NCBI GenBank assembly: GCA_039096225.1
Contig: JBBPEB010000029.1
Coordinates: forward strand, 248,001 to 312,000
DNA: 64,000 nt
Source: Blastocystis sp. Blastoise
Taxonomy: Eukaryota; Protista; Bigyra: Opalinata
Reading direction: 5' to 3'
Shown here: in pieces, positions 36,416-58,170 of the stretch
Numbering within the stretch: the stretch's first letter is position 1
Layout: each line of letters starts with the position of its first letter
Made by a program: the position numbers and the translations under genes
The notes under the pieces: generated by a model
Database searches by the model: none
Told to the model about the DNA's origin: nothing
Seen by the model: only the letters and a program-made list of their open reading frames with translations

Positions 36416-36470
36416 AACAAAACAATAAAATAATTATGGTTTATTTAACAAATTAAAATATAAAAAAAAA

Positions 36471-37508: not shown

Positions 37509-37577
37509 TTTTATATGATTTTAATCAACAAAACAAAAAATAATTAATGATAAGTTAAAGATAAATAAATGATTTTA

Positions 37578-38249: not shown

Positions 38250-38345
38250 TTTTATTAAATGAATTAATTATGAAATTATAAACAAAACAATATTTTTAAG
38301 ATTAATATAAAGTTGATACAAATAAGAAAATATTATATAATTAAA

Positions 38346-39569: not shown

Positions 39570-39739
39570 GTTAATAATTATTGTTTATGTATTTTTTAAA
39601 TAAAAAATAAAATAATAATGATATTTTATAATTATAAAATTATTTGAAATTCATAACAAAACAAATGATTGGAATATAGAATAGAATAGAATTAATTAAA
39701 CAAGTTAACGTTAAGAATAGTAAGTAAGAAATATTAAAT

Positions 39740-41212
39740 TTAAATATCACGTACACTACGTACAGCAATCATATGTAATGTATAAGGATGCTTCTCATTT
39801 AGTTCAGTATTAATATGTTTATAAATACCAGCATGAGATGCTACACTATAAGAAGCACCAGTATCCGGTGTCCATATTTTAGTAGTTTCATTATATGTAC
39901 ATGTATATCCATCAGGAACAGTGGATGAATTAGCATGACCATATTCAATATCATGAACATCTAGATTACAATCAAAATTCATTTCTATACCACTATCTGA
40001 TTGGATATTCATTAATGCTTTAGTTGGAATAATATAAATAGGATGTTTAATCCATTCATCATATTTAAGAATAGTTTCAGGATTTGAATTATCAGCCCAT
40101 AAACAATATAAATTTTTATTAGGACAAGATAAACTAGCAGTTTCTTCATTATTGAAGACATGACCTTTAGTAGTAAGATTATGATAATACATTTGAGTAG
40201 GGAATTCAGTTTGAGGGAACATTTGAACATCACCAATCAAACAACTTTGATATTTAGGCCATACAGATGGACTAGCTACATTACTAATAGTTGTTGAACT
40301 ATAACCATTTGTAAACCAGTATAATATATATTCAGGTATAAATGGTAAAGCTCTATTGATATTGAAATGATCACTAGTTATTCTTGTATTTTGATAATCG
40401 ACTTGAATACATGTAGGTATAGTTTTATATAATTCATTCGTTTGAAATTGAATATCTTTATATGTCATTAAATTCATAGTAGCTGATTCCAATTCAAATG
40501 TCTTAAACCATTTTTCATCAGTTAGATGTAACCATTGTGTTGATAGATCTTTACCACCATTCTTGAAATAAATACTCATATTATTATCAATTAAGGATTC
40601 AATAGTACTAGTTCTAAATAACATATTGAAATGTTTAGTTAATATTAATGAATCTCCATCAACACCTAAACCACTAATAAGATATAAAGGAATAGCAATA
40701 TGAATAGATTCATTTGGATGTGCACGTATATAACGAATAGAATTCAATTCATAAGTATCTGCAGATAAATCTTCACCATACATAGATTTTTCTAAATCAT
40801 TCTTACTGATATCTTTTAATAATATCATTTTACGACCACGTGAAGCATGTGTACAATTTTCTTCATATTTCAAAGCACGATCAGATCCATCAGGTAATGT
40901 ATAAACCATTTCAACATCAGTGGAATCAATAATAGAATAAATATTAGCTTTCTGAACTAATTGATCCAAGAAATATTGACATAATTGATCATAAGTGAAA
41001 CTAACAGAAGTACCTGTTTCATCTAAATAAACAGAAACTGGTCCTTTTTTATCTGTAACAGTTGCTTTGACAGTAAGATCCAAATAGGATTGATTGAAAT
41101 TGATATAAGTATTATCCACATTAGTCCAATGATATTGAAAGATATAAGGACTTGATAGAATATCAGTATCACTTTGAATAGGAATATTATCTTTAATTCT
41201 TAAGATTCTCAT
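39740..41212 (-). CDS. Major capsid protein 2 (paralogue of MCP1 with insertions)
   Basis: Shares YINFNQSYLDL, NIYSIID, KSMY, IPLYLISGLG, IPEYILYWF, IGDVQMFPQTEFPT and PIYIIP blocks with 38346-39569. Confidence 0.7.
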   Translation of the reverse strand: MRILRIKDNIPIQSDTDILSSPYIFQYHWTNVDNTYINFNQSYLDLTVKATVTDKKGPVSVYLDETGTSVSFTYDQLCQYFLDQLVQKANIYSIIDSTDVEMVYTLPDGSDRALKYEENCTHASRGRKMILLKDISKNDLEKSMYGEDLSADTYELNSIRYIRAHPNESIHIAIPLYLISGLGVDGDSLILTKHFNMLFRTSTIESLIDNNMSIYFKNGGKDLSTQWLHLTDEKWFKTFELESATMNLMTYKDIQFQTNELYKTIPTCIQVDYQNTRITSDHFNINRALPFIPEYILYWFTNGYSSTTISNVASPSVWPKYQSCLIGDVQMFPQTEFPTQMYYHNLTTKGHVFNNEETASLSCPNKNLYCLWADNSNPETILKYDEWIKHPIYIIPTKALMNIQSDSGIEMNFDCNLDVHDIEYGHANSSTVPDGYTCTYNETTKIWTPDTGASYSVASHAGIYKHINTELNEKHPYTLHMIAVRSVRDI

Positions 41213-41307
41213 ATTTCTTTTAATTTTAAATAAAATATTAATAAATAAATAAAATTAAATAATTTTTATAAATTAATATAAATTATAATTTAATAAAATT
41301 AGAAAAT

Positions 41308-43791
41308 ATGGAACTTGATGATGATAATTATGAAGAACAGACTTCATTAGAAGAGAAGGATACTCGTATTAAAACACATGTAGTCCCTATTGATGTTCGT
41401 TGTATTGATAATCAATTCAATATACATTTATCGAATTCTATTGATATCACTAAAAATATCATTTCTTATATTGATCTTAATTTAATTGGTAGTGAAAGTG
41501 TGCCTCTATTTGATACTTTCACAAAAACACAAATATTCAAATATATAAATACTCAAGTCAATGGTAATGAACAAATTCAAACAATTACTTTAGATCAGAA
41601 AAATTATTCTATTCCTCAATTATTAGAACAATGTCATTTTGATATATGTGATAGGCCATTAATAAGTGAATCTTCTGATATTGATCCTTCTGTTAAAATT
41701 AAGAAAATTCCAACAATTACAATTAATAGAGATGATTTTTATTGTGAATTTCATATTGCTAATGCAAGACGTGGTTTTAATTTCCCAAAAGGAACTTATA
41801 CAGATATAGAATTTTGGTGGATCGCTGTTTGTTTGGTATCTTCTGTATGGTTAGATAACAAAAATCGACTGATGATGAAATATGATGATGATAATATAAT
41901 AATATATCGACCTCAAACAACTTCTTTTCCTATTCCTGTTAGAACAACAGGGACTTATTCATTAAAAGAATATGCAAATAATGGTGTATTTAGTAAGTTC
42001 ATTCATGATATTCCTACACAAAGTAGTGAAGGAACAATTGAATGTGTAATTAATGAAGATCATAAGTTCTATTTTCAAGATGTAACTTCTCCAAATATAA
42101 ATATGATTCTAAAAATGGAAAATAATTTATTTACTGGTTTATTTGACGATAATGGAACACTAAAATACACTAAAAATGAAGAAGAAATTGTTTTGCAAAG
42201 AATTACGAATCCAGTTAAAGATGATGATACATATAATTTCAAAACATTAATTACTGTTGAAGATGGATATAATACAATGATTATTCGACAAATAAGTGGA
42301 ATGGGTGGTCGAATGGAAACTACATACACAATGCCTCCAGGAGAATATACTGAACAAGAATTCTATGATTTATTAGAAAGTTCAATCAATGGATCTCCTG
42401 AAACATATTACTTCGAAATATCAAAAGATGCTCAAACGATGGACAATAAAGATGGATATATAATATATTTATCATGGCAAGGTTATGATTCAAGTTCATG
42501 GACATTTACAGCTACAGATATAGAACATTCATTATTTAAATATCGTGGTGCTTTGCATAATATACGACCTGATTTAGTTTATGATAAACAAGGATGTTTT
42601 GCATGGAATATATCTTATGGTAAACAAACCATGGATGTACAAGTTGATTTAAATACACTTGATTTAGATGGAAATTATAGGTGTTATACGAATAATAGTT
42701 TTATGAATTTCTCTGAAGCACAAGAATTAGGTGAAATATTAGGTTATAGTAAATTATATTATAACGATGCAAATAGTTATTATGGTATTCATAATATTGA
42801 TAGTAGTCGTCCAAAAGGAATGTTAATAGCTCAATCGAATATAGTAGATAATAGTCAGAATTCTTTATATTCATTTAATGTGAATAATTATAAAGGCAAT
42901 AATGAATTTCATGATATTATGAATATTAATGTGTCTCCTTATTTGAATACCATACAAGATATTATTATACGATATACTGATAAGAATAAACAATATGTGA
43001 ATTTCAATAATAATTGTATTTTAAGAGGATTCTTAGAATTCTCAGATACAGTCGATACGATTCAACCAAGTGAAACCATTAAGAAATTATGTTTGAATTG
43101 TCAAACAGCAGATACACAATTCTATGCTGAATATCCTACATTGAATATCCAAAATAAGATCTTGAAAGATATTATTATTCAGAATGATACTGATACGATC
43201 CAAGCAAATGCATCTAAATTATGTACTGGATATATAAATGGATCTTATTATCCTACATTTAGTTTTCCTTTATCGGATAAATATGTTACATATAGTAATA
43301 TAAATTCTCCAATTACAATTGATCATCATATCGATTTAAGATTTGATGAATTATTCAAAGGAAATATAATTTGTAATATATGTGAACCTAATGGTAGTGA
43401 TATTCGTTTCAAAGCTTATGATGAAGTGTATTGTGATTTTAGTACAAGTAAGAATTTAATTTATGAATTGAAGAAAACCAATGTCTATGGATATCAATAC
43501 TTAACTAATATACAAGTTATATCAGTGTATGGTCAATCCACTGATTACTTATATCCTATTTCATTAAGATGTTTTACTAATGAATATGAGAATAATATTC
43601 ATGTTATTGATACTACAAATCTACCTTATTACTATTCGAATGGTATTAAATATGAAGGTATATCGAATAAGATCAATAAGAATGTTTATTATTGTAATCG
43701 TAAATTATTAAAGTTATTACCTCATGATAATATGTTCTTTATTACTTGTGATTATCCTTGTGTTGTTTTATTAACTATCTCTTATATATAA
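41308..43791 (+). CDS. Large penton-like / receptor-binding structural protein with nested insertions
   Basis: 827 aa. Repeated penton-type motifs (LDQKNYSIPQL, FPKGTYTDIEF, MPPGEYTEQEF), LGEILGY, IAQSNIVD, IQDIIIRYTDKNKQYVNFN, then a beta-rich C-terminal extension. Confidence 0.55.
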   Translation: MELDDDNYEEQTSLEEKDTRIKTHVVPIDVRCIDNQFNIHLSNSIDITKNIISYIDLNLIGSESVPLFDTFTKTQIFKYINTQVNGNEQIQTITLDQKNYSIPQLLEQCHFDICDRPLISESSDIDPSVKIKKIPTITINRDDFYCEFHIANARRGFNFPKGTYTDIEFWWIAVCLVSSVWLDNKNRLMMKYDDDNIIIYRPQTTSFPIPVRTTGTYSLKEYANNGVFSKFIHDIPTQSSEGTIECVINEDHKFYFQDVTSPNINMILKMENNLFTGLFDDNGTLKYTKNEEEIVLQRITNPVKDDDTYNFKTLITVEDGYNTMIIRQISGMGGRMETTYTMPPGEYTEQEFYDLLESSINGSPETYYFEISKDAQTMDNKDGYIIYLSWQGYDSSSWTFTATDIEHSLFKYRGALHNIRPDLVYDKQGCFAWNISYGKQTMDVQVDLNTLDLDGNYRCYTNNSFMNFSEAQELGEILGYSKLYYNDANSYYGIHNIDSSRPKGMLIAQSNIVDNSQNSLYSFNVNNYKGNNEFHDIMNINVSPYLNTIQDIIIRYTDKNKQYVNFNNNCILRGFLEFSDTVDTIQPSETIKKLCLNCQTADTQFYAEYPTLNIQNKILKDIIIQNDTDTIQANASKLCTGYINGSYYPTFSFPLSDKYVTYSNINSPITIDHHIDLRFDELFKGNIICNICEPNGSDIRFKAYDEVYCDFSTSKNLIYELKKTNVYGYQYLTNIQVISVYGQSTDYLYPISLRCFTNEYENNIHVIDTTNLPYYYSNGIKYEGISNKINKNVYYCNRKLLKLLPHDNMFFITCDYPCVVLLTISYI

Positions 43792-43860
43792 ATATTTTAA
43801 GACATTTCATTTAAATTAAAAAATGTTTTGTTATATTATTCATTTAAAAATTATTAAAAA

Positions 43861-44283
43861 ATGGAGCCTAAATCTGTATCTGAATCCTTACATTCTTTAT
43901 CAAGTACAAGTTCAACAAGTTCAGATAGTTCAACAACTACCACATTATCAGAAGAAGAAATAGAAAAGAAAAATACTTTATTAGAATTTATTATAAAAGC
44001 TATAAAATGTTTATTTGAGAAATCAACTGAATTCTTTCAATTAATTGTTAAAAATATAGATATTCATTGTAATTGTTGTAATCCACAAACAAAGAAAGTC
44101 TATTATAAGACAATGAAAATACAACAAACTATTATTGAAGAAGAAGTCAAACATATATCTGAAGTCTTGAATGAATTAGAAGAAATTGATTCTAATCAAA
44201 ATGAATCAATACAAGAATTAGCTGTTCAATTAATGAAATTAAATATAAGTGTTGATTCTATTGTTCAATCTCTTCATTTATAA
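43861..44283 (+). CDS. Hypothetical viral protein (Ser/Thr-rich N-terminus, CNCC, coiled coil)
   Basis: 140-aa intact ORF followed by the TTGTTTTGTT motif. Confidence 0.55.
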   Translation: MEPKSVSESLHSLSSTSSTSSDSSTTTTLSEEEIEKKNTLLEFIIKAIKCLFEKSTEFFQLIVKNIDIHCNCCNPQTKKVYYKTMKIQQTIIEEEVKHISEVLNELEEIDSNQNESIQELAVQLMKLNISVDSIVQSLHL

Positions 44284-44350
44284 TTCTATGAAATGTTATA
44301 AAATATTAATAATAAATTTGTTTTGTTTATAAATAATTTAATTTTTAATA

Positions 44351-46147
44351 ATGCAATCAACAGGTTATTCAGATAAAGATTGTGAAGAATTCTTTACAAA
44401 TTGTATAGATCAATTATTACATTGGAAGAAAATACAATTATCAACAAGTATAAATTGGAAGAAATGGATAAAGACAATATGTAAGAAATTTCGTAATGAA
44501 GAACGAATTCAAATAGATGATATGGAAGAACCATTCTTTTGTGTAGAAGTGTTAACAGATCCATTCCAATTTCAAAATGTTATGCAACATACACAAACAG
44601 AAGCTCCTGGACAACAAGGTGGATTATCCAATACTACTGTAGCTAATTATATGCAAATGATTACTTATATAATGAAGAATATATCTATTTGTACAGATGA
44701 TGAAGATATCATTAATTATAAAGCATTTACTCCACAAAATATAAAGAAATGGGAACATTTATGGGGTTCTTTACAAATTGATGCTACTTATTCAAGACAT
44801 TATGAAATTACTCAGAAAATTATTAATTGTGAAGCTGATTGGGGAGAAATCATTAATATCACCAAAAAGAATTATTTAGAGAATCCTAATGATTTATATT
44901 ATGTGAATAGTTATTTATTAGTTTTAACTTATGATACATTATGTGCTCGTAATGATTATAATGATTGTGTAATCTATACTCGTGGTCAACAAATTCCTTT
45001 ATCGTTAAGAAGAACAACCAATTATATTGATTTAAATACTTTAACTATTCATGTGAATGATACAAAGAATCGATTTGAAATTGGTAAGAATGAATATCCT
45101 ACTTATCAATATTTATCAGAAGAATATTTGAATGTCTTAGCTAGATCTTTACGTTTATTTCCAAGACATTATTTATTTGTTACTGAGAATGGTGGTAAAG
45201 TACGTGATTTGAAATTTGGTGATGAATATATAAAACCACATTTAGGCTGGATTTATAAAACACAACAGAATAATTCTTTAATTAATGGTTGTGATATTAT
45301 AAGACATTTATTTGCTCAATATTATTATAGATTATCAAGAGAAGCACAATTCCAACATGATGATTCAGAACATGAATCTAAAGGTGTAGAACTCTTTGAA
45401 AACTCTATTATGAAGATGTTACATAGTCAATCAACACATATGGAAAATTATATATCTCCTTATTTATCTTCTCATTCAACTAAATTGCAAGATTTAGATA
45501 ATAAAACAAGAACATTTCATATTGATATGAATAATATTACTTATACAAGAGAAATTAATCAATTAAATAAATTATTATTTTTATGTAAACGATTTAATGA
45601 TCGTATAGAACAATATGAAGAAGACTATGAAGATGTATTTGGTAAAGAGAATTTCAATATGAAATCAGAATCCATATTAAGTAGTCTAGAACAATATTCA
45701 TCAGATAATGATACTATAATGATTACATTAAGATATTATAAAGATCTATTAAAGCATCATTATCCAGATAAAACAGATTTAGAAAATGAATTACCTGTAG
45801 GATGTTCATTAGAATCTGAAGAAGTTCCAGAGAATTCTAGAGATCGTTATAATCGTTTTATACGTAATAAACAATTATTACCTGATCATTTACATAATAA
45901 TACAACGGATTCAGAATTAACGAATACTCAAGCATCTCTTATGCAACAGAATACTCAAGATGAAAACTCTACACCTATAGTTATGAATAATTCAGATACT
46001 TATGCATTACGTAGTCTTTCTACTATGCCTCCTTTAGAACCTATTCATCGTGGTCATGGTTTATGTAAAAAACATAAAAGTAATGCATTCTTTAAAGTCA
46101 AAGTCCCTAAAAAACATTTTCATGGAATTCAATTTAAATTTTATTAA
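44351..46147 (+). CDS. Tyrosine recombinase 1 (long)
   Basis: Catalytic pattern CARNDY (R), VNDTK (K), DIIRHLFA (RH), MLHSQSTHMENY (H..Y at +9); C-terminal RGHGL plus basic tail. Confidence 0.7.
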   Translation: MQSTGYSDKDCEEFFTNCIDQLLHWKKIQLSTSINWKKWIKTICKKFRNEERIQIDDMEEPFFCVEVLTDPFQFQNVMQHTQTEAPGQQGGLSNTTVANYMQMITYIMKNISICTDDEDIINYKAFTPQNIKKWEHLWGSLQIDATYSRHYEITQKIINCEADWGEIINITKKNYLENPNDLYYVNSYLLVLTYDTLCARNDYNDCVIYTRGQQIPLSLRRTTNYIDLNTLTIHVNDTKNRFEIGKNEYPTYQYLSEEYLNVLARSLRLFPRHYLFVTENGGKVRDLKFGDEYIKPHLGWIYKTQQNNSLINGCDIIRHLFAQYYYRLSREAQFQHDDSEHESKGVELFENSIMKMLHSQSTHMENYISPYLSSHSTKLQDLDNKTRTFHIDMNNITYTREINQLNKLLFLCKRFNDRIEQYEEDYEDVFGKENFNMKSESILSSLEQYSSDNDTIMITLRYYKDLLKHHYPDKTDLENELPVGCSLESEEVPENSRDRYNRFIRNKQLLPDHLHNNTTDSELTNTQASLMQQNTQDENSTPIVMNNSDTYALRSLSTMPPLEPIHRGHGLCKKHKSNAFFKVKVPKKHFHGIQFKFY

Positions 46148-46191
46148 TTTTAAAACAAAACAACTTTTTATAATAAAAAATAAATATATAT

Positions 46192-46356
46192 TTAATTTGG
46201 TATAGCATATAAAGTATTATCTATTAAAATTCGTTTTGTTGATGACGTATTATGATATTGATCTTCACTATAAACAATTTCTTCTTTCTTAGATAAACAA
46301 TTGGATAAACAGAATAAATCTGTATCTACACATTCATTATAAGTATTATCAATCAT
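46192..46356 (-). CDS. Small ORF (54 aa) whose ATG overlaps the primase-helicase stop (TAATG)
   Basis: MIDNTYNECVDTDLFCLSNCLSKKEEIV..YAIPN*; the minus-strand 3' motif lies at 46154-46163, just after it. Confidence 0.45.
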   Translation of the reverse strand: MIDNTYNECVDTDLFCLSNCLSKKEEIVYSEDQYHNTSSTKRILIDNTLYAIPN

Positions 46357-49193
46357 TAAACCACAAATACCAATAGCATTCCCCCCTTATAGAAATTTGA
46401 AGTATGTTTTCTATGAATATTCACAATATCTATAGAATTAAATGTATCTTTACTACTTAAACAACCAAATAAAGCATTTGTAAATTTATCTAAATCTTTC
46501 TTAATCGTAAATTGATTATTATTATTCACTTTCTTATAACTATTAAAAATATCTTCAATAGTAACTACATTCAAATAATAAGGATCTATAGTAATATGGT
46601 TATCAACAAAAGATTTCAAATCATATCCTTCTGTACTACGATCAAAGAATCGTTTCTTACATTCACTTATATGATATTCATTATCTAATTCATGCATATC
46701 TAATTGCATACTAGAATAGAAATAATTACTTACTAGATAACTAAAGATAATAGAACGATTCTGATAGAATTTATCGGATAGGGTATAATCCATTTCATAA
46801 TGATTGGGTTTCAATCTCTTTTCTACTGTCTGTTTACGTTTAGGTAAATTATGATCTACATAATCTTCATATAAATTAGCATTACCAGGAGGGAAATAAC
46901 GACAACATGATGGTAAGAAACAAACTCTTCTTTCAATAGGACCAGCATTCACAGCAGTAGGTTGAATATTACTTGTCATAAATAAAGTACCCGTGAAATG
47001 AACTTTTGTAAATATATTACTGAATAATTTACGAGCACTAGCACCTTCTTTCTTTTCTGCTATTTCTTTAAATACTTTAGAAGAGAATGGATTAAATGTT
47101 TTCTTTCTACCAGTAACATCTTCTTCTATTAATTCATTCATATAATACATTGTTTTATTAGACATATCTACAATCTTAGGAGCTATAGATGTTTCTTCTA
47201 AATTATCTGGATTTACTATAATACATTGATTACTACCTACAATACGAGAAATTAAATCAGTTGTTATTGTTTTACCATTACTACCTGTACTACCATATAA
47301 TATATAAGAAACTGTTTTCTGAGTATTGACATAGAAAGCAGTGGTTAAGATACGTAACATAATACTTTCATATTTCTTATCGAATTCACAATATCTTGCA
47401 ATATGTTGTTCAAATAATTGGATAATATCTTTCTGTTCATTATTTATATTCCAACTTACATTAAATTCAGTATCAATTAATAAATCTTCAAACACCATAT
47501 CTTCTTTATGATATGGTTGGATATAATATTGTCTAGGATCTTCTTCTGTAGATTCTTTTGGATATAAATAACCAAGTTGTGTATAGATAACACGTTCTTT
47601 ATGAACCATATAAGTATCTAAATATTCTTTATAAGATTTACCATAAGTCTTCAAATAACGATTCAACCATTCTTTATAATGATATTCATTAGTAACAGAA
47701 GCAGACATTATTTTATCAACTATTTTTTGATGTTGTTCATTCTCTTTGGAATATAATCTTGATAATTTGAATTTCTCTACAATCGATTTCATAAATGTAG
47801 TTATTTTGGTTTCAAAGAAATTAATATCATAATTATTCTTACAACGTCTTAAGATATTATATTCATCAAATGTATATAAGATAAAATTATCTTTATCTAA
47901 TATAATGGAAACAATTTCATTAAATTCTAATAATTGAAATAACATAACTAATGTTTGTGAATCTACAAGATTAAAGGATTGAATACATTCTAAAATAGAC
48001 ATAAATATGAAATCATTATCATCATCTTTATTAAATAATTTATTATCCATTAATATCTTCAAAATATAATTATTCGATAAATGAGTAGGATCAACTTGTA
48101 TATGATTCCATGTAGATTCAATTACATCATCACTTCGATCATGACCATAACGTAATGAATAATTTTTAAATAATTCTAATCCTCTTGTTGTATTACAAAT
48201 CTGTTTTGCTGCACAACATAATTTATACCAAGTATTATGAGATTCAAAATAATTCATATCTTCAATAGAACCAATCAATAATAAATATCGTTCCAATAAA
48301 GCTTCTTTAGATGCTGTAGTATCCAATATAGTATCTGTAGAAATCAACATAGGAATATCTTTAATATCTTGTATAGAACATAATATAGTACGTGAACAAT
48401 TATTTAATCTTGCATAATAACGTTTATAACGTGAATATTGTTTTAATTTATAAAAGATAATAGGATTAATAATATCACTTATAATATCATCTTCATTCTT
48501 ATAATTCAATAATGTTTTGAAATAATAATGTTCATCAATTTCATCATCTATTTTCTTCCATGATTTATTGGTATATTCTTCATATAATTTATAAGTAGAT
48601 GGAGAATTATCTTTACTACAACCAAGAAACATACAACCATTATTCTTTCTGGGTTTACCAATAACATTATAATCAATGAATTCTTTTATATCTAAATTAT
48701 ATGTTTTACATAAATCAACCAATTTTGTATTCAGAATCATACTATTATATAAGAAAAATAAATAATCACCATTTACAAACCAATTTGTATATATGTGAAT
48801 TCCCCATGAATAATGTATTTCATTATGAACTGTCTTCTTATTCACTTCTTTCTTTGTATACACAAGCGAAATAAATTCTTGATTATAATAATGAATACAA
48901 TGATTACACATTTCTTCTATAAATTCATGAATAAAAGAATCTGTTAGAAAAGAAAAATCATTTGATATTTGGTGATAATCTAAATCAAACCATAATCTTC
49001 TATAATTAGTTGATGTATTACAAGGAGTACAATCAATATAATGTAGTAATTCTTTTTGATGTTGGTAATTAGTAAATAGACTTTTATAAAATGGTAAAGG
49101 ATTTGGTATAATAATTTCACTATGATTATCTTTTGAGTTATCATGATTAAAGGAACCAAAAGTATAAACAAAATGAATTTGTGAATTTTCCAT
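46356..49193 (-). CDS. AEP primase-PriCT-2-SF3 (D5-like) helicase
   Basis: RLWFDLD and WGIHIY (AEP motifs), HNTWYKLCCAAK..LFKNYS..TWNHI (PriCT-2), Walker A YGSTGSNGKT, Walker B YYMNE, LFMTSN, ERRVCFLP. First ATG at 49193. Confidence 0.9.
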   Translation of the reverse strand: MENSQIHFVYTFGSFNHDNSKDNHSEIIIPNPLPFYKSLFTNYQHQKELLHYIDCTPCNTSTNYRRLWFDLDYHQISNDFSFLTDSFIHEFIEEMCNHCIHYYNQEFISLVYTKKEVNKKTVHNEIHYSWGIHIYTNWFVNGDYLFFLYNSMILNTKLVDLCKTYNLDIKEFIDYNVIGKPRKNNGCMFLGCSKDNSPSTYKLYEEYTNKSWKKIDDEIDEHYYFKTLLNYKNEDDIISDIINPIIFYKLKQYSRYKRYYARLNNCSRTILCSIQDIKDIPMLISTDTILDTTASKEALLERYLLLIGSIEDMNYFESHNTWYKLCCAAKQICNTTRGLELFKNYSLRYGHDRSDDVIESTWNHIQVDPTHLSNNYILKILMDNKLFNKDDDNDFIFMSILECIQSFNLVDSQTLVMLFQLLEFNEIVSIILDKDNFILYTFDEYNILRRCKNNYDINFFETKITTFMKSIVEKFKLSRLYSKENEQHQKIVDKIMSASVTNEYHYKEWLNRYLKTYGKSYKEYLDTYMVHKERVIYTQLGYLYPKESTEEDPRQYYIQPYHKEDMVFEDLLIDTEFNVSWNINNEQKDIIQLFEQHIARYCEFDKKYESIMLRILTTAFYVNTQKTVSYILYGSTGSNGKTITTDLISRIVGSNQCIIVNPDNLEETSIAPKIVDMSNKTMYYMNELIEEDVTGRKKTFNPFSSKVFKEIAEKKEGASARKLFSNIFTKVHFTGTLFMTSNIQPTAVNAGPIERRVCFLPSCCRYFPPGNANLYEDYVDHNLPKRKQTVEKRLKPNHYEMDYTLSDKFYQNRSIIFSYLVSNYFYSSMQLDMHELDNEYHISECKKRFFDRSTEGYDLKSFVDNHITIDPYYLNVVTIEDIFNSYKKVNNNNQFTIKKDLDKFTNALFGCLSSKDTFNSIDIVNIHRKHTSNFYKGGMLLVFVV

Positions 49194-49279
49194 GATTATT
49201 TGACTTATAAATAATGAAAATAAATATGGTATAAAATTCAAAACAAATAATATATTAAAGATTCTAGAAGTCAGTTTTA

Positions 49280-49399
49280 GAAGCTTCTAGAACATTCTAG
49301 AACATTCAGGAACATTCTATAATAGTAAATATTACTTTATATTTTTAAATGTTCTAGAACCTTCGAGAACCTTCTAGAACCTTCTAGAACCTTCTAGAA
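49280..49399. promoter_or_regulatory. Two heat-shock-element-like arrays upstream of the primase-helicase
   Basis: GAAgcTTCtaGAAcaTTCtaGAAcaTTCagGAAcaTTC (49280-49317) and TTCtaGAAccTTCgaGAAccTTCtaGAAccTTCtaGAAccTTCtaGAA (49352-49399). Confidence 0.65.
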
Positions 49400-49508
49400 C
49401 ATCATTTTTATACTTTAGTGTTTTAAATATATATACAATAAACAAAACAATTTTCAATGATTTTTACAAGTTTATAAGTAAAAATAGAAAAATAAACAAG
49501 AAAAATAA

Positions 49509-50132
49509 TTAAATTTCAATTGGTTCTTGACTATTAATATATGTACATGAATGAGGCCATCCATTTTTATCATATAAAATACCATCCCAGAAATACATTT
49601 GTTTTGAAGGATCTCTTTTAATCTTGTTAATACTCTTAGCATGAACAACTTCATAAGTATAAACTTTACCTTTTTCATCATAAAGGAATCCATCTTCCAT
49701 ATGGAATTTCATAATATCAAAATCATCATCTTTAGAATTCGAATGTTCTTTAGAATCTTCAGAACATAAAATAGTAGTTCTATCACTTTCTAAAAGATCT
49801 TCAGTATTGATAATATCTTGAATATCTTGTTCTTCATTAAGTTGTTGAGTATAAATATCAGCAGCGAATTCTTCATAATCTTCAAGACCTTTAATAACCG
49901 CGTTTATACGTTTTAAAGCTGATCTATAGTTTTCGACTTCGAAAGAAGCAAGACGTTCTTTAGATTTTGCAATACCCAATAGATTCTTTTCTCTATTCAA
50001 TTGAGACTGATGTAAATCAATATCACGAAGAACATTCTTATGAACTTCAACAGCCTTCTTAGAATTCTTAAGAAGTTCCATACGAACAGTTTGAAGACAT
50101 TTACGGGAATCAGCAGAAAGATTAAATTGCAT
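49509..50132 (-). CDS. Hypothetical coiled-coil viral protein
   Basis: ATG at 50132, heptad-rich N-terminal half, duplicated DG(F/I)LYD(E/K)(K/N)G motif; HSE-like element at 50244-50261 upstream. Confidence 0.6.
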   Translation of the reverse strand: MQFNLSADSRKCLQTVRMELLKNSKKAVEVHKNVLRDIDLHQSQLNREKNLLGIAKSKERLASFEVENYRSALKRINAVIKGLEDYEEFAADIYTQQLNEEQDIQDIINTEDLLESDRTTILCSEDSKEHSNSKDDDFDIMKFHMEDGFLYDEKGKVYTYEVVHAKSINKIKRDPSKQMYFWDGILYDKNGWPHSCTYINSQEPIEI

Positions 50133-50530
50133 TATAATCGCGAATATCGTTACAGAGAGAAAATTTGTATTTATCAAAATGAAATAAATAATACATTTAA
50201 ATGGAATATTAAATATTCTAGGAGACAGTGTAGAATCTCTATGGAATGTTCTAGAAGGTTCATTTGATTGGCTAATTTTGTCGACTTAGCATTTTTTATT
50301 TGTGTTTCAATGACGAGTATAGTTGGCATCTGTAATCTGATTGGATAAAAAAATTAGTAAAACACAATTAGACGATGACGACGACTTGTCATACAAAATA
50401 AGCTATTCTATTGGTTTATTTTCCAGCTGGAAGCAATAGGCTTTTGTTAGCAACTGAAATGAAGAACTGTACACTAAAAATAGTATATTTAATATATTGT
50501 ATAAAAATACTTTTGAAGGTTTAAATAATC

Positions 50531-51058
50531 ATGGAAATTCCTGATAGTCTTTCTGCCAGTTTATCCCCTTTCGGTCAAGCCATGATATCCCCCTTGTTGA
50601 ATCCATTTGAAAATAGTGTTTCTGAAAATCCTATGGCTTTACCCAATGATAATGATTTCTGTTTTAATTCGCGTGACGAAATCATATTTGAAGATCCACC
50701 TCAAGAAATTCATCCAATCAATGATGTTTATGTATCTAAAAATCCAGATAGATATCATTCGGTTAACAATCAACCAATACAATTTCAAGATCAAGTAAAT
50801 ACAAATCCTAATAAGCAAGCATTATTATTTACAAATGAGGAGTTAACAAATATATCCAGTCAATTCGAATCTTTATTTCAAACTATTGAAACAGCTGATA
50901 ATATATTAAATAGTATTTATTGTACTGTTGATCATTTAAAAACAAAGATTGAAAGTCAGAAACAAGATTTGAAACAGATTCATGATGATTCTAAAGAAAT
51001 TGTTTCATTATTATCCGAATATTCTATTCCTTCTATGTCTGAAATATTTGATCATTAA
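50531..51058 (+). CDS. Hypothetical viral protein (acidic N-terminus, C-terminal coiled coil)
   Basis: 175-aa ORF followed by TTGTTTTGTT at 51081. Confidence 0.6.
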   Translation: MEIPDSLSASLSPFGQAMISPLLNPFENSVSENPMALPNDNDFCFNSRDEIIFEDPPQEIHPINDVYVSKNPDRYHSVNNQPIQFQDQVNTNPNKQALLFTNEELTNISSQFESLFQTIETADNILNSIYCTVDHLKTKIESQKQDLKQIHDDSKEIVSLLSEYSIPSMSEIFDH

Positions 51059-51144
51059 TTTATTTATTTAATTAATTATTTTGTTTTGTTTATTTTTTAA
51101 ATTAATTACACAAAGTTTAAATGGAGAATAGAATAATTTCAAAT

Positions 51145-51253
51145 AGAATTCTTGAATGGTCTAATGGATCTATTAAAGAAATATGTAACCACAGTATCAT
51201 GGTTCGATTCCGTTAAAATGTTTCCATTAGATTATTCAAGTGTTCTTTTTTTT
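51145..51253 (+). ncRNA. Putative RNA polymerase III small RNA (VA/vault-like architecture)
   Basis: A box TGGTCTAATGG 51157-51167, B box GGTTCGATTCC 51201-51211, long terminal stem with G:U pairs, T8 terminator 51246-51253. Confidence 0.65.
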
Positions 51254-51299
51254 CTAGAACCTTCTCGAACATTCTAGAACCTTCTCGAACCTTCTGGAA
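51252..51299. promoter_or_regulatory. Heat-shock-element-like array upstream of the SSB-like gene
   Basis: TTCtaGAAccTTCtcGAAcaTTCtaGAAccTTCtcGAAccTTCtgGAA (10 units). Confidence 0.65.
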
Positions 51300-51376
51300 A
51301 ATTGATTCATTTGAAAAGAATATCTAAATATATTAGTATTAAAATACTTATATTTTTACTAAATACTTAACTAAAA

Positions 51377-51970
51377 ATGTCTACAACTGAATTTAAAAAA
51401 CCTACTATTCTTGATACTTCTAACTTTAATTTACAATGGGATGACACCAAAGAAAATGCTGTTCTTTTAAATAATAATCATCGTGTATGTATTTCTACTG
51501 ATGCTACACCATGTTTATTTGGTTATATTGTTACACGTGATAAATGGACTTTATTAACAATTGAAGATGATAATCAATTATTCTTAACTGCTTATAAAGA
51601 ACTTTATCGTAAATTATGTGAATTATGTCCTGATGGTGATATTGTTAATTTTGTACGTATGGATAATGGTAAATATAAGATTACAATTAAAGTACCTATT
51701 AATGCATCGAAGAATGTTACTATTGATATTACTGATAAAAGAGATAAGAAGATTAATATCGGTAAAGATCCTAAGTTAACTTACGAAGAAATACGTGAAA
51801 AGTATATTCCACCAAATACGTTATGTAAAGTATTATTTACAATACATGGTATTCATCGTTATAATAACAAGTATTATATTGGTTTATATGCTCGTTCTAT
51901 TAAAGTCATCGATAAATCTACGAAGAATACTAATAGTAATGATACTATTATTGATTTAACTAATTTATAA
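51377..51970 (+). CDS. Probable OB-fold ssDNA-binding protein (T7 gp2.5 / NCLDV DUF2738-like)
   Basis: TPCLFGY, KYKITIKVP and IPPNTLCKVLFTIHGIHRYNNKYYIGLYARSIKV resemble the viral SSB pattern; recognised by eye only. Confidence 0.5.
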   Translation: MSTTEFKKPTILDTSNFNLQWDDTKENAVLLNNNHRVCISTDATPCLFGYIVTRDKWTLLTIEDDNQLFLTAYKELYRKLCELCPDGDIVNFVRMDNGKYKITIKVPINASKNVTIDITDKRDKKINIGKDPKLTYEEIREKYIPPNTLCKVLFTIHGIHRYNNKYYIGLYARSIKVIDKSTKNTNSNDTIIDLTNL

Positions 51971-52044
51971 ATTTTTAATGTTAAATTTATTTTTTATTAA
52001 TATATTTGTTTTGTTTATAAATAATTTTATAATTGAAATAAAAA

Positions 52045-53673
52045 ATGCAAAGTTGTATATTAGGAATGCCAAGTCCTGGTACTTTTGGTATGAATTTAAT
52101 TTCAACTGGAAAAGAATATAGGCGATATAATACACAGCCATTACATAAAATGGATCAATATAATCCAATATTTCATGAAATAGGTCCAAATTCATCTATG
52201 CCTGTAACTACTTTAGAAAGTAAAGAAATACATGATGGTAAAGAAGATGATTATGTAGATCGTTCTAAAACATTTGGTAAAGATGCTGTTCCACAAGGAA
52301 ATGGTGCATTAATTCGTGCTAGAGCAGCAGGTAAAGGTGTAATGAAAGCAGCTGGTCCAGAAGAAGATAAAATAGATGGTGAAGATCGTCAATATAAAGT
52401 ATTAAATCCATGTAAACCAAGACGTAAATCTGGTAGAGGTATTATTCCAAATAAATCAGAAATCAATAAATTAGAAAATAATCAAGGTTCTGGTATTGGT
52501 GATGCAATTAAAAATAAAGTAAAAGATATGTATCAACGAAATGTATTAGATATAAGAGATGCTATTGTAGATAAAAAAGCTAATAGAAAAGCTCGTGATG
52601 CATTAGCTATTTTAGCTCAATATGTTGGTGATGGTCATCATGATCTTGATGATGAATTCAAAAGATTCTATGATCATAAAATAAAACGTGGTGGAAAGAT
52701 TCCTATATCTGTTGCTTCAGCAATTATGAATGCAATTAAAAATAAGAAAATGATTAAGAATCCAAAATTAAGAAGAATGTTAAGACCTTCAATTATACCA
52801 AAATATATAGATTTAGATTCAGCTCAAAGTGGTGATGGTATATTAAGAGTTAAAAGAGGTGGTGGATTCTGGGATGGAGTAATGAATTATGCACCAGCTC
52901 TTTTAGGTGTAGTTGATAAAGGTATGGATTCTTTTGCTAAAGGTAGAAAAGCTTATTATGATACACATTTGGCACAACAATCAAGTGAATTAAATGATAT
53001 GGAATTTGAAATGGAAAAATTAAAACGTCAACAAGCATTAAATGAAATGAAAAAACAAATAGGTTCAGGAAATACTATAAATAAAATGTTTGAAGGATAT
53101 TATGATGTAGCTGATGAAATGCAAGATGCTCTTAACGAAGATGATAGACTACATCCACAACCCGTTGTTCAACCTCCACCACCTCCACAACAACAAGTTG
53201 TTAGACCTCCTCAACCTCAACCTCCTCAACCTTATAAACCTATGTCTCGTGATGAACAAAGTTATCCTTATAAGATTTATGGTTTCCCTCAAAATGATAA
53301 GGAGAAAGTCGATAGAAAATGGAAAGAAGATGAAAGGGATAAACGAATAGCTGCAAGAAGAGCTAAACGTAGAGGATATGGTGGTCGAGTTAAATTAAGT
53401 AAAGAAGAATTCTTAGAACGAATGAGAAGAGGAAAAGAAGCTAAAAAGAAAAGAGGTGGTGAATTGCCTCCATTGGTAACAGCTTATACAGATTTTGTAA
53501 TACCTGCACAAGTAGAACAAAGGAAACGTAAAGTAGCTAAAAATGATTTAAAACAATTACAAATTATAAAACAGAAAATGGATAATAATGAAATATTAGA
53601 TAGAGGTGAACAAATGTTTTGGAAAGAAAAGAAGTATATGTTATCAAAAAACTCAGGGGAGGGGATCTGGTAA
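52045..53673 (+). CDS. Core polyprotein precursor with many GxG/RGG maturation sites
   Basis: 542 aa, basic and Pro-rich segments; QGNGAL, AGKGVM, SGRGII, QGSGIG, KRGGKI, SGDGIL, KRGGGFW, IGSGNT, GYGGRV, KRGGEL. Confidence 0.6.
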   Translation: MQSCILGMPSPGTFGMNLISTGKEYRRYNTQPLHKMDQYNPIFHEIGPNSSMPVTTLESKEIHDGKEDDYVDRSKTFGKDAVPQGNGALIRARAAGKGVMKAAGPEEDKIDGEDRQYKVLNPCKPRRKSGRGIIPNKSEINKLENNQGSGIGDAIKNKVKDMYQRNVLDIRDAIVDKKANRKARDALAILAQYVGDGHHDLDDEFKRFYDHKIKRGGKIPISVASAIMNAIKNKKMIKNPKLRRMLRPSIIPKYIDLDSAQSGDGILRVKRGGGFWDGVMNYAPALLGVVDKGMDSFAKGRKAYYDTHLAQQSSELNDMEFEMEKLKRQQALNEMKKQIGSGNTINKMFEGYYDVADEMQDALNEDDRLHPQPVVQPPPPPQQQVVRPPQPQPPQPYKPMSRDEQSYPYKIYGFPQNDKEKVDRKWKEDERDKRIAARRAKRRGYGGRVKLSKEEFLERMRRGKEAKKKRGGELPPLVTAYTDFVIPAQVEQRKRKVAKNDLKQLQIIKQKMDNNEILDRGEQMFWKEKKYMLSKNSGEGIW

Positions 53674-54239
53674 AGAGTAAAGATGAAAAACTTATTCAAA
53701 ATTCAATGAATTGCGATAATCCTATTATATCTGATAAAACTCGTCATGTTACTCCTAGATCCCCTGATAATTTTAAACAAACTCTATTTCAATATTGTAA
53801 TATACCCAATTCTTTAATATCTCAATTATATAATTATGCTTATTTAAATAAACCTACCTCTTCTGTTGCTTGTGATCGTGCTGAAAATGTTATGAAACAA
53901 TTAAATAAAACGAATTCTCAATCTTATAATTATTATAATAGTTATGATGATTTTGAACAAAATATAGATCAAGATCAAACTAAATTTAATATGATCTTTC
54001 ATGAAAGTCCTAGTGATCCTTATAATGGTCATTTTGAAGCTGTTATTTATAATGGTAATAAAAATATAGAACACTATTCATCATTAGGAAATAAACCTAC
54101 TTTTTCAAAATCATTTATTCAAAATCATAATATTCAATATAATCCTATTCAACACCAAAAAACTACAAGTAATGCAAATGGTTGCTTTTATTATTCTTTA
54201 CTTTATTTACTTTCTAATGGAAATCTTATGCCTTGTTAA
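53619..54239 (+). CDS. Adenain/Ulp1-like cysteine maturation protease (-1 frame relative to the core polyprotein; first ATG 53706)
   Basis: GHFEAV (His), EHYSSLG (variant of the usual FDS(F/L)G), oxyanion QHQ and GCFYYSLLYL (Cys). Confidence 0.7.
   Translation: MERKEVYVIKKLRGGDLVKSKDEKLIQNSMNCDNPIISDKTRHVTPRSPDNFKQTLFQYCNIPNSLISQLYNYAYLNKPTSSVACDRAENVMKQLNKTNSQSYNYYNSYDDFEQNIDQDQTKFNMIFHESPSDPYNGHFEAVIYNGNKNIEHYSSLGNKPTFSKSFIQNHNIQYNPIQHQKTTSNANGCFYYSLLYLLSNGNLMPC
53646..53765 (+). promoter_or_regulatory. Candidate -1 programmed ribosomal frameshift signal
   Basis: In-frame slippery heptamer A AAA AAC (53646-53652), 7-nt spacer, stem AGGGGATCTGG/CTAGATCCCCT (53660-53670/53755-53765) extended by GAGTAA/TTACTC. 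Confidence 0.65.
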
Positions 54240-54325
54240 AACCTTCTAGAATATTCTAGAATCTCTAATTTATTATATTAATATTTTGTATAATTAATTT
54301 GTTTTGTTTATTATTTAATACTATA

Positions 54326-54481
54326 ATGACAAAGAAACGATTTGGCAATTACTACTTAGATCGTAGTGCAGAAACTTTAGAGAATGTAAATGAAATACTG
54401 TCAGTTATTGAAATTGTTCTTATTATTATATATATTTTACTTTACTTCTATATGTCCAAGAAACGTTCTAGAACATTCTAG
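54326..54481 (+). CDS. Small single-pass membrane protein (51 aa)
   Basis: ILSVIEIVLIIIYILLYFYM hydrophobic run followed by basic residues; HSE-like element at 54244-54261 upstream, 3' motif at 54552. Confidence 0.45.
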   Translation: MTKKRFGNYYLDRSAETLENVNEILSVIEIVLIIIYILLYFYMSKKRSRTF

Positions 54482-54583
54482 AACATTCATTTTGAACTGG
54501 CTCTATTTGTAGAATCTTTAATTTATTATATTAGTGTTTTATATAATTAATTTGTTTTGTTTAATCATTGGTTAATTTTAATA

Positions 54584-54958
54584 ATGAACAAGAAATATCT
54601 TAGTTATTCTTATTTTTGTCGTGTGATGAAGAATCTAAAAGAAGAAGGAATTAAATCCAAAAAGAATGAAATAGCGAATCTTTTAGAACAATTTTTAAAT
54701 AACAATAACAACAAAAATCTTAGTGATTTACAACTAAGTTATTGTAGAAACATGTTACTTTATATAGATGATCCTGTGATTCATCAACGTCTTGAAATGC
54801 TATTGGATAAACAATATATGAAGAATGAGAATCAATATCAAGAGGATAAGAATCTTATTCAACCCAATAATATGTTTATGCCTACTATGAAAAGTAATCA
54901 ACAACAAAATCAATACCAAAATAATAATAATAATCTATCTTTCTTACCTTTTAATTAA
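54584..54958 (+). CDS. Hypothetical viral protein (Asn/Gln-rich C-terminus)
   Basis: 124-aa ORF from ATG 54584; HSE-like element at 54466-54488 upstream, TTGTTTAGTT at 54982. Confidence 0.55.
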   Translation: MNKKYLSYSYFCRVMKNLKEEGIKSKKNEIANLLEQFLNNNNNKNLSDLQLSYCRNMLLYIDDPVIHQRLEMLLDKQYMKNENQYQEDKNLIQPNNMFMPTMKSNQQQNQYQNNNNNLSFLPFN

Positions 54959-55031
54959 TTTTTATATCCTTTTATTACTAGTTGTTTAGTTATATTCAAA
55001 ATTAAAACAAAACAAACATAAAAACATAAAA

Positions 55032-55967
55032 TTATTCAATTAATTTTTTAAATAAATTATTATTTTCTAAAGATACATAAGAATTAATATGTGTATAATC
55101 ATTATGACATAAAGCAGAAGCAGAATTTTCTATATCTTGGAATGTATTGGTTGTAGTTGTAGCATATAATTTTCTTAATGCATTAATGGTTAATTTTGGA
55201 TGGATTTGTTTTAAATGCTTATTCACAAACCAATCAAATGCTTTAGTAGTAAATCCAGTTCGTACAGAAGATTCAAATATAAATTTACGATTTGGATTTC
55301 TTTTTAAGAGTAATTCTAGATCTTCAATCAATTCTTTTGGTGCATCTAATTGAATTGTAGAGTATTTACCAGCAGTTTTATAATCATTCAATAGAATAGA
55401 ACCAGTGTGTTTCTCTTTATCATAAACAATATAATTCTTATGAATAGCTGGATCAATAGTATCTTCTGGAGTTAGAATGAATAATTGAGCATAATCAGCA
55501 CGAGCAGGAGGAAGATAGGAGTAAAAATCTAATATTAATCGTAATGGATTATAATTTTCTAATTTATCGTGATATTCATGTAAATATGGAGTCGTAATAC
55601 CATCTTTAATAAGATCTTGAATCAAAGTGCGTTTCTTATTATCCAGATATTTTTCATACATAGAATTGATAATCACATAAAATTCACACCATTTATTTAA
55701 AATACCTTCTTTATTTAATGAAGAAACATTACGTATAATAAATAATATCAATTCACATAACGATTTCATTGGACTAATTTTGATTTTACGTTCATTTACC
55801 ATATAATCCATGAATGAATAAGGATTCTTTAAGAATTCTGAGAACTTTTTAAATGGTAATGGGAAAATATATAAATTGAAATAATTGGTTAAACGTTTTT
55901 TCCAAATATCAGAATAATTTGAATTCTGTATAACCAAAAGATACTTGTCATAATTTGTATTTTTCAT
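55032..55967 (-). CDS. Tyrosine recombinase 2 (integrase- or protelomerase-like)
   Basis: PPARADY (R), LNDYKTAGKY (K), NALRKLYA (R..Y), LCHNDYTHINSY (H..Y at +9); adjacent to the right TIR. Confidence 0.8.
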   Translation of the reverse strand: MKNTNYDKYLLVIQNSNYSDIWKKRLTNYFNLYIFPLPFKKFSEFLKNPYSFMDYMVNERKIKISPMKSLCELILFIIRNVSSLNKEGILNKWCEFYVIINSMYEKYLDNKKRTLIQDLIKDGITTPYLHEYHDKLENYNPLRLILDFYSYLPPARADYAQLFILTPEDTIDPAIHKNYIVYDKEKHTGSILLNDYKTAGKYSTIQLDAPKELIEDLELLLKRNPNRKFIFESSVRTGFTTKAFDWFVNKHLKQIHPKLTINALRKLYATTTTNTFQDIENSASALCHNDYTHINSYVSLENNNLFKKLIE

Positions 55968-56055
55968 TGATTTTCTCAAGTAGAATCTTTAAAACTTCTA
56001 TTTTCAAAAGAATAATACATAAGAAAATCAAAATAAAATATCTAAGATTCTCATG

Positions 56056-56967
56056 TTCTCGAATGTTCTAGAAGTTTCGAGAATGTTCTAGAATATTCTA
56101 GAAAATTGATATACATCCCGCCACCTAAAACCACTGGAACACAATTAGTTTCCCCAGTTTCCCCAATATAATTGTGTTTTTGTGTTCCGAAATCCCTCAT
56201 TTTTACAATTTTAAGCAATTTGATTGGACAATTCACGATGACGCATCCTATTTCCATAACGGTCACCCTTGTTTCCAAAAGTCTCTCGTTATAGTCGTGG
56301 TGGTGGGTACATCTTTTTACAAGACCACACCACCACCAGCTTTTCTTTCACCCACTATAAATACATACCTTGATCACTTTACTCTTTTTTATATAAATTT
56401 TTTATGATTATCATGACTTTTTATATTATTTATTGATCACTATACATACATTTTTATTTTTATATATTCCCGTGATTATTTTTATTATTTCTTTTTAGAT
56501 AGAACCATCCATTTCATCTTTTCTCTATATAAAGGGAGGGTCGGGGTGTGTGTTTATTTAGCACATTCTGTGCTTCTTTTCGTATTTCTTTCTGTATTCC
56601 CGTGATTATTTTACTCACTTTACCAACGATGGAGTCATTTTCCATGAATATTCCCTGTAAAGGGGAGGGTTGGACTGTGTATTTTATTTCTTTTATGATT
56701 ACTATGAGTTTCTCCTTGATCACTTTACGTTTCACGTTGGAATCGGAACACAAATAAATTAAAAATAAATAAACATGGGAAAAAATAAATACACACACAC
56801 ACTACCCTACACTCCCATGGTTATTTTACTTCAGAAATGTTATTAATTCTTCCGTCGAGAACAAAAAAGGGGGATGTCTTCCCCGCTTATGGCTGCGCGC
56901 GTCGCGCAGACTCTATGCGGGGTTTGCATACCCCCTTCTGCAGTTCGAAGAACGGAAGAATTATTAT
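56056..56967 (-). repeat. Right terminal inverted repeat (912 bp)
   Basis: Reverse complement of 31736-32647; its HSE-like array (56056-56103) lies upstream of tyrosine recombinase 2. Confidence 0.95.
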
Positions 56968-58170
56968 TTTGTTTATATCTTATAAGAGTTAAACACAATA
57001 CAATAACTAATTTTTTGGCTATTTGTTTGTTAGATCACGGATTCAAAATAATTAGTAATGCCTAGAATATGATAAATAGGCACACACATAGCTGATAACC
57101 TAATTACAATCACTTGAGTAAGCTTTATTTGATGTTTCAGTTAGGCATGTAAATATTTTAAAATTTGTTTTATTTTTAAGAGTATAGTTTTAAATATATA
57201 ATGATACAAACCGGTTTACGAATAATTATTGTTATTATGAAACGATTTATTCAAATTTATATGTCACGTCGATGTGAAGAATTACATTATATTCAAAAAT
57301 TTTTATAATACTTGTTGAGTAAATTTGTTGGTTGAAAGAAAACGTTAAAACAAATCAAACTAGAAGTTTGAACTTAATGACTGATATAATGTTGTGTTCT
57401 TTTATGCTGACAAAACGAATCTCACGTTATCATATATACTTTACAAACCAAACAATCAACATATAACAGTGTCTTATAAAATATCACATCGACATTCTTT
57501 AGTAGAGAGTGTTTATAGTAATTAAAAGCAATTAATATTTTAAACTTAAGTTGAGTATTTATGGAATCAGATGTATAAATGGGTTTTTACAACATAGTAA
57601 ATAATAAATGAAGGTCAATTCATAGCTAATATTAAATCGTGAAGTATGGTTGTGACGTGTGTCTTCAAAACATTTTTTTTTTTAGTATATTACAGCAAGA
57701 GTCTTAAAGAAAACGAGGTTTAATAAAAATTGTGGAAACTACTAAAAAAGAAAAGAATATTCCATACAAATTCCATAAAGATTTTATTATTTGGTTTATT
57801 TTATAAAATATTTAAATAGATATAAGGCTAGCTGATATTGATTATGTGTATATAATTGTTTACATAATATATACACTGTTGGCACCTAATATTTGAATTA
57901 ATAATAGGTATCTAAGAAAATCAACTTCAGGCAGGATTGTTGTATACATCCATGGTTAGATAATAGTGAATCATGATCGGTGAGCAAGCTTGGGATGAAA
58001 CAAAAACTTTACTTTTAAAGGAGATTTGCCTAATCAGAAATTGAAAGAAGCCGCCTTGCAAAATGAATTTGTATATAATTATGTAGTCTTATTCTTATAG
58101 TCAGCCACTTTGGTTATGACAGTTTTATTTATAGTTGGCTTTTTAAGTTTCAATTCTGTTCTTTACACGC

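Follow-up and report, generated by a model that had tools for sequence, protein, structure and literature searches.

Does an integrated virus of a protist carry its own gene for a small RNA that RNA polymerase III (Pol III) makes, and what would such an RNA do? The question is raised by a 109-nt unit in the 64-kb window, which is the whole stretch of DNA that was analysed. This unit (51145-51253) has the A box, the B box and the T-run expected of a type-2 Pol III unit (Table 1). The unit is a real and well-formed candidate for an RNA gene and, judging from its sequence, is likely a transcribed Pol III gene.

Table 1. Positions of the candidate RNA gene, its parts, the neighbouring features and the surrounding element
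Feature	Position	Strand	Remarks
Candidate Pol III RNA gene	51145..51253	+	predicted transcript ~105 nt; putative start A51145, end inside the T-run
A box TGGTCTAATGG	51157..51167	+	on the 5' side of the terminal stem; matches TRGYNNARNNG (excerpts of PMC12498455)
B box GGTTCGATTCC	51201..51211	+	5' half within the predicted apical hairpin
Terminal stem, 5' arm	51145..51168	+	24 nt; pair probabilities 0.75-1.0
Terminal stem, 3' arm	51223..51246	+	pairs with 51145..51168
Apical hairpin	51187..51204	+	predicted; 5 bp, 8-nt loop; p 0.93-0.99
T8, Pol III terminator-like	51246..51253	+	first T4+ run of the unit
Upstream ORF	50531..51058	+	175 aa, no family match
Gene-end motif TTTGTTTTGTT (11 nt)	51080..51090	+	22 nt past the stop of ORF 50531-51058
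GAA/TTC pentamer array	51252..51299	+	heat-shock-element-like; 78 nt upstream of ATG 51377
Downstream ORF	51377..51970	+	197 aa, no family match
Polinton-like (MELD-type) integrated virus	31733..56970	.	~25.2 kb; terminal inverted repeats (TIRs) ~0.9 kb, 98-99%
Major capsid protein	38346..39569	-	predicted double jelly roll

The integrated virus

The unit lies inside a 25-kb, TIR-bounded element with a double-jelly-roll capsid protein, and its placement inside a virus in an earlier, sequence-only reading is confirmed. The capsid model was built from a 36-sequence alignment (the query and 35 of 87 homologues) and has a pLDDT of 71, against 29 for a single-sequence model. Its best match in the PDB is the Sputnik virophage capsid (E 1.6e-11) and its best match in BFVD is a MELD virus protein (E 1.1e-15, TM 0.61). 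Searches of the PDB with the capsid sequence gave no match. A tandem capsid paralogue at 39740-41212 is 27% identical to the major capsid protein. The capsid family is small and isolated, with 11 clusters at 50% identity among 1.8 billion, and has dozens of metagenomic members on contigs of up to 27 kb. A literature search found no description of this family.

ORF 36471-37508 has a terminase-family PHROG hit (E 1.2e-10) and, by eye, a Walker A motif, on which basis it is a putative packaging ATPase. ORF 46356-49193 matches primase-helicases, and no ORF of the element gave a PolB hit. The TIRs, the double-jelly-roll capsid and the packaging ATPase together assign the element to the polinton-like/MELD viruses. 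As had been proposed, it belongs to the same broad lineage as the adenoviruses, that of the double-jelly-roll viruses. Three further ORFs, 44351-46147 (+), 55032-55967 (-) and 53706-54239 (+), we take by eye to be two tyrosine-recombinase-like proteins and one cysteine-protease-like protein; Pfam, PHROG and NCBIfam give no support for these assignments.

For three ORFs, the nearest homologues that bear a name are labelled Blastocystis sp. Blastoise (92-99%), and 10 of the 11 members of the ATPase cluster carry the same label. Further relatives occur at 75-80% protein identity on contigs of up to 27 kb. Alignments of the ATPase and the capsid against viral and genome contigs found no relative. 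One of the proteins labelled Blastoise, P0001 from a sister copy of the virus, ends in 39 residues that match a repeat in the flank of the window (38/39). This match links the flank to the same host as the sister copies, and that host is likely Blastocystis, a gut protist.

Structure of the unit

The A box and the B box are separated by 33 nt, as originally described, which is within the 30-60 nt of the type-2 Pol III criterion. The B box is the only full match to GGTTCRANYCY in the 25-kb element. The terminal stem has 23 pairs, three of them G:U, and one U.U mismatch. Its inner part (51151-51168/51223-51240) consists of 18 bp with two G:U pairs (51158/51233 and 51159/51232). Beyond the mismatch, the outer part (51145-51149/51242-51246) adds five pairs, including one U:G. 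The 18-bp stem with two G:U pairs, the outer extension and the T8 after it had all been noticed before, and all are present. The start at A51145 is placed from the end of the stem and a pyrimidine-purine step.

In the predicted fold, the apical hairpin pairs 51187-51191 with 51200-51204 and sits in a weakly structured top domain of 54 nt. The T-arm-like loop of the sequence-only reading exists as sequence, but its fold is disfavoured: forcing the T-arm costs 4 kcal/mol relative to the 5-bp hairpin. The absence of a cloverleaf is upheld. A tRNA or tRNA pseudogene is rejected: ARAGORN finds none in the window and gives only broken models at lowered thresholds, and there is no Rfam tRNA hit. The last two T of the T8 also belong to the GAA/TTC array that follows, as part of its first unit. 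The G+C content is 28% in the unit and 12-13% in the flanking gap sequence.

Departure from chance and strand assignment

With box patterns defined post hoc from the site itself, the strict A+B pattern occurs in 0/500 dinucleotide shuffles of the 25-kb element, the relaxed A+B pattern in 12/500 and the B box alone in 4/500. With a stem pattern defined in the same post hoc way, an 18-bp contiguous stem is found in 0/2979 random 34-mers when the 5' end is fixed (maximum 13) and in 0/2000 shuffled 3' arms (maximum 15). A run of T6 or more lies within 45 nt at 3.8% of positions. The joint chance bound for boxes, stem and T-run is ~3e-8 per element if the three are independent, and it too refers to patterns taken from the site.

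The + strand folds at -34.2 kcal/mol (z -6.2), and 0/200 shuffles fold as well. The - strand has a z of -6.1. With z-scores this close, neither the fold nor the G:U pairs choose a strand. The G:U pairs that had been said to set the + strand do exist, but two G:U pairs out of two is roughly a 1-in-4 event and the argument from them is weak. The assignment to the + strand relies on the boxes and the T-run.

Stem length alone is unexceptional, with two other 17-bp, G:U-tolerant stems in the element. The unit ranks sixth among 3352 element windows, behind only a self-pairing GAA/TTC array and four TIR windows. Two of the 17 internal gaps fold below -30 kcal/mol, namely the gap of the unit and that of the array. 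When the same two boxes are sought exactly in viral contigs, 119/120 of the matches listed are tRNAs, mostly with a spacing of 31-33 nt. Because the box matches mark tRNAs elsewhere and the unit has no tRNA fold, its promoter is canonical and its body is not that of a tRNA.

Homology searches

The Rfam and tRNA-finder check that had been proposed was run and returned no Rfam family and no tRNA (ARAGORN). Across the whole window, nothing reaches an Rfam gathering score. On a 136-nt stretch, with E up to 10, there is no tRNA, VA or vault match. Five microRNA-precursor models give weak hits, all on the + strand; the best has an E of 0.0012 and reaches 26 bits where the gathering score is 100, and these hits reflect shape only. 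Rfam hits to the URE2 IRES and to snoRNAs are due to chance.

There is no second copy of the unit within the 64-kb window. The box-plus-stem pattern has no match in viral contigs and two in metagenome contigs, both tRNA-Ala of an unrelated prokaryote. The GAA/TTC array pattern has one match in viral contigs, an unrelated locus without an A/B pair or a shared ORF. Searches against phages with blastn gave chance hits only. The other B-box-like hits in the window (23585 and 30514) are part of a host repeat and are unrelated to the unit. A cruciform or recombinase site is rejected: the DNA fold is strand-neutral (-15.1/-14.9), and by what is generally known of such sites the 54-bp spacer and the boxes are unsuitable.

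Flanking genes and signals

A single homologue of the downstream ORF was found, at 92% over 66%, and bears the label Blastocystis sp. Blastoise. By eye the ORF is possibly an ssDNA-binding protein, with no support from Pfam, PHROG or NCBIfam. In run X1, both flanking ORFs have contig coverage (the upstream one partly, the downstream one at 51366-51941) and 51148-51363 has none; such runs consist of contigs, which are unable to show a short RNA, and this gap is uninformative on transcription. With 2 and 6 differences in the flanking ORFs, these contigs derive from a sister copy. Runs X2 and X3 have no contig placed on the window.

The gene-end motif TTTGTTTTGTT has 10 exact copies in the element (34452-55016), each in sense orientation after the end of an ORF, and none in the 38.8 kb of flank. 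These copies come 16-75 nt after nine listed ORFs and after the small ORF at 54326. One tail-to-tail gap contains the motif and neither head-to-head gap does. The sense orientation, the position at gene ends and the absence from head-to-head gaps suit a 3'-end signal, and the copy at 51080 probably serves the upstream mRNA in this way. Excerpts of PMC10690189 describe a downstream element with the core TGTTGTT that is present in human but not in tortoise Blastocystis isolates. TTTGTTTTGTT resembles this element. The virus may keep a 3'-end signal that its present host has lost.

GAA/TTC triple units number 45 in the element and 1 in the 38.8-kb flanks (shuffle mean 0.5, maximum 4, in 200 shuffles). 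They form eight arrays (32600-32647, 49280-49317, 49352-49399, 50244-50261, 51252-51299, 54244-54261, 54466-54488 and 56056-56103). Each array lies 47-159 nt ahead of an ATG, and none is in the capsid block. We take the arrays to fit the heat-shock element consensus. Their sequence suggests that the provirus may be turned on by the host heat-shock factor. The literature search found no description of heat-shock-element arrays in such viruses. Two small ORFs, 32694-32861 (+) and 54326-54481 (+), have 55 and 51 codons and each lie directly behind an array; the second contains a hydrophobic stretch.

The position of the unit between the gene-end motif (the probable 3' end of one mRNA) and the downstream array (the probable promoter of the next) is that of an independent gene rather than of a UTR. 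Against an independent RNA slot, ATG 51121 lies 31 nt past the gene-end motif, a gene-like spacing, and opens a frame of 31 codons. The two bases that the T8 has in common with the array also count against an RNA gene.

Comparison with known RNAs

In excerpts of PMC7589676, adenovirus VA RNA has box A in the terminal stem, which is also the part cut by Dicer, and carries box B in the apical stem. The unit is like VA RNA I/II in these box positions (with box B in an apical stem that is predicted) and in its oligo-T and paired ends (PMC7589676). It is also like VA RNA in its intergenic position and in the kind of virus that carries it, one with a linear dsDNA genome, terminal inverted repeats and a capsid of the double-jelly-roll type. 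Unlike VA RNA, it contains neither GGGU nor ACCC, has no Rfam match and is short, with a unit of 109 nt and a transcript of ~105 nt as against ~160 nt. Further differences are an apical hairpin of only 5 bp, a G+C content of 28% and a virus that integrates. To our knowledge, the protist host also differs in having no PKR, which is a vertebrate kinase. The unit is an analogue of VA RNA and not a member of the VA family. Of the earlier description as VA-like, the placement of the boxes stands and membership of the family does not.

The unit is like the vault RNAs and nc886 in size (88-150 nt for vault RNAs), A-B spacing (31-44 nt) and the type-2 internal promoter (excerpts of PMC10491885). Unlike them, it is viral and not cellular. 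The vault-like label is unsupported: there is no Rfam vault hit, and the domain table of Blastocystis, Proteromonas and Cafeteria in PMC10690189, searched by term, has 0 rows with the term 'vault'.

Like the pre-miRNAs of bovine leukaemia virus (BLV), the unit would be a viral type-2 Pol III hairpin with the A box inside the hairpin (excerpts of PMC12498455). The BLV pre-miRNAs are cut directly by Dicer, according to the same excerpts. Unlike the BLV units, which have degenerate boxes and a B box placed past the terminator, the present unit has an internal and perfect B box, and it is single where BLV has a cluster (PMC12498455).

The element is like the MELD and other polinton-like viruses (excerpts of PMC8502044) in being a TIR-bounded linear dsDNA element of middle size, and the best BFVD match of its capsid is a MELD virus protein. 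The Blastocystis MELD virus of that paper has PolB and a retrovirus-like integrase, whereas in the present element the replicase hit is to a primase-helicase and no ORF gave a PolB hit. The legend of Fig. 6 in PMC8502044 reports predicted tRNA genes in some MELD viruses, and section 3.4 of that paper describes no VA-like RNA in them.

Silencing and Pol III machinery of the host group

A lone RNase III domain is not necessarily a Dicer. Domain counts for the host group are from supplement file 7 of PMC10690189, in which rows were found by term search. In these rows, the three tortoise Blastocystis isolates have PAZ (3/1/0), Piwi (2/1/0), Argonaute N-terminal (0/0/1) and RNase III (2/1/1) domains, as well as La (2/1/2) and TFIIIC Tfc4 (2/3/2). 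The same table (PMC10690189) lists heat-shock factor (HSF) and dsRNA-binding domains in the host group. Its searched rows contain no eukaryotic RdRP in 8 Blastocystis, no Exportin-5 C-terminal domain and, in the three tortoise isolates, no TFIIIC B-block-binding domain. No row is named Dicer or GCN2 in this table, which was searched by name only (PMC10690189). PMC5608401 does not mention RNAi, Dicer or Argonaute.

Proposed function and alternatives

We propose that 51145-51253 is a viral Pol III gene for a hairpin RNA of ~105 nt whose stem serves as a substrate or decoy of the Dicer/Argonaute type, and we regard this reading as evenly balanced between right and wrong. If the RNA is transcribed, its partner is somewhat likely to be a small-RNA pathway. 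A Dicer/Argonaute substrate or decoy is the best guess because the tortoise Blastocystis isolates have PAZ, Piwi and RNase III domains, and these domains lend indirect support to the RNAi decoy or small-RNA precursor of the sequence-only reading. Counting against it are the results for RdRP, Exportin-5, Dicer and the B-block-binding domain, none of which turned up in the rows of the host table just described. By what is established for Pol III genes, the boxes would be bound by TFIIIC, Pol III would start near A51145, ~12 nt before the A box, and termination in the T-run would leave a short 3' oligo-U overhang. The ends of the transcript are predicted to pair over 24 nt, about the length of one Dicer product, below the loose 54-nt top. 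Bulk RNA from the nuclear virus might then saturate, or be cut by, RNase III/PAZ/Piwi proteins. Silencing of viral transcripts might be blunted in this way, as by the terminal stem of VA RNA. Neither arm of the stem pairs better with the 18 viral ORFs than 12 shuffled arms do. With no excess of arm pairing, a self-targeting guide is unsupported, and a decoy or a host-directed guide is favoured over self-regulation.

An unlikely alternative is a role at the DNA level, akin to the TFIIIC insulator of the sequence-only reading, in which occupancy by TFIIIC and Pol III opens chromatin or forms a barrier by the downstream heat-shock-element-like promoter and the RNA is a by-product stabilised by its stem. 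tDNA barriers are established in yeast and mammals. The terminator of the unit adjoins the array at 51252-51299, 78 nt ahead of the next ATG, and chromatin silencing would be a pressure on an integrated element. A barrier needs a B box and has no use for a 23-bp stem enclosing the A box (0/2979 controls), and a full B box is absent beside each of the seven other arrays.

Also quite unlikely is a Pol III RNA with another partner, which would lure away a stress-activated eIF2-alpha kinase or a dsRNA-binding protein, or act as a La sponge, and so keep translation on while heat stress turns on the genes of the virus. The eight GAA/TTC arrays 47-159 nt ahead of start codons would suit such a role, as would the HSF, La and dsRNA-binding domains of the host group, and kinase blocking is the main function of VA RNA (excerpts of PMC7589676). 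However, the GGGU/ACCC central domain that VA RNA requires for kinase inhibition (PMC7589676, in part) is absent from the unit, the tRNA-like T-arm is disfavoured by 4 kcal/mol and the host table, in a search by name only, has no GCN2 row. The stress-kinase decoy suggested at first is thus unsupported.

The unit is very unlikely to be a passenger, that is, a host small RNA gene, the head of a tRNA-derived SINE or a MITE that landed in one proviral copy. Its boxes are those of ordinary tRNAs, the 18-bp inverted repeat could be the end of a MITE and host repeats do insert into sister copies, as in the 39-residue tail of P0001. Yet it is single in the 64-kb window, its edges have by eye neither a poly(A) or A-rich tail nor a target-site duplication and it sits between two viral signals, neither of which is broken.

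It is highly improbable that there is no RNA gene and that the boxes arose by chance in a micro-ORF, whether of 31 aa (51121-51216) or of 37 aa (51164-51277), or in a polyadenylation hairpin like those of virophages, since despite the gene-like distance of ATG 51121 from the gene-end motif and a coding-like local G+C, boxes, stem and T8 together stay unexplained (the ~3e-8 per element, if independent and for post hoc patterns), no such hairpin is found at any other gene end and neither frame has an exact gene-end motif behind it before 51377.

Implications

Pol III RNAs of such a layout are known from vertebrate viruses and oppose PKR and Dicer. If the proposed silencing function is correct, the VA strategy extends far outside animals and RNA silencing would be its original target. 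In the open-access literature, with subscription journals outside the search, no paper joins 'polinton' with 'VA RNA' or 'adintovirus' with 'polymerase III'. Our broadest reading, which is tentative and on balance doubtful, is that protist polinton-like viruses make their own VA-like Pol III RNA against silencing. The VA strategy would then be old, or repeatedly invented, across the polinton/adenovirus lineage, would predate PKR and would here be coupled to a gene programme driven by heat-shock factor. If this coupling is true, it would imply a nuclear life cycle that is self-sufficient and is set off by stress of the host and not by a helper giant virus. The combination of heat-shock-element-like arrays and a host Pol III promoter would imply transcription by the host nuclear machinery, which bears on the replication mode of polinton-like viruses. 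These proposals are cheap to test, given a culturable host group and the many genomic copies and metagenomic relatives of the virus.

Other features of the element and its flank

A 2.9-kb inverted duplication (23107-26054/28055-31002, 100%) is flanked by (TATATTA)n, and in P0001 a gene of a sister virus is interrupted by this repeat. It is either a host repeat of recent origin or an artefact of the assembly. Part of a host repeat, 23537-23606 (+), with an inverted copy near 30503-30572, folds as a cloverleaf of 70 nt and four arms, one of them T-loop-like. Its anticodon-like loop has the centre TTA; the fold has a z of -4.2, 2/200 shuffles are as good and neither ARAGORN nor Rfam calls a tRNA there. 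Within the TIRs, the blocks 31748-31857/56843-56952 and 32363-32472/56228-56337 are G+C-rich and strongly folding (z about -5), and are candidate origin or recombination sites.
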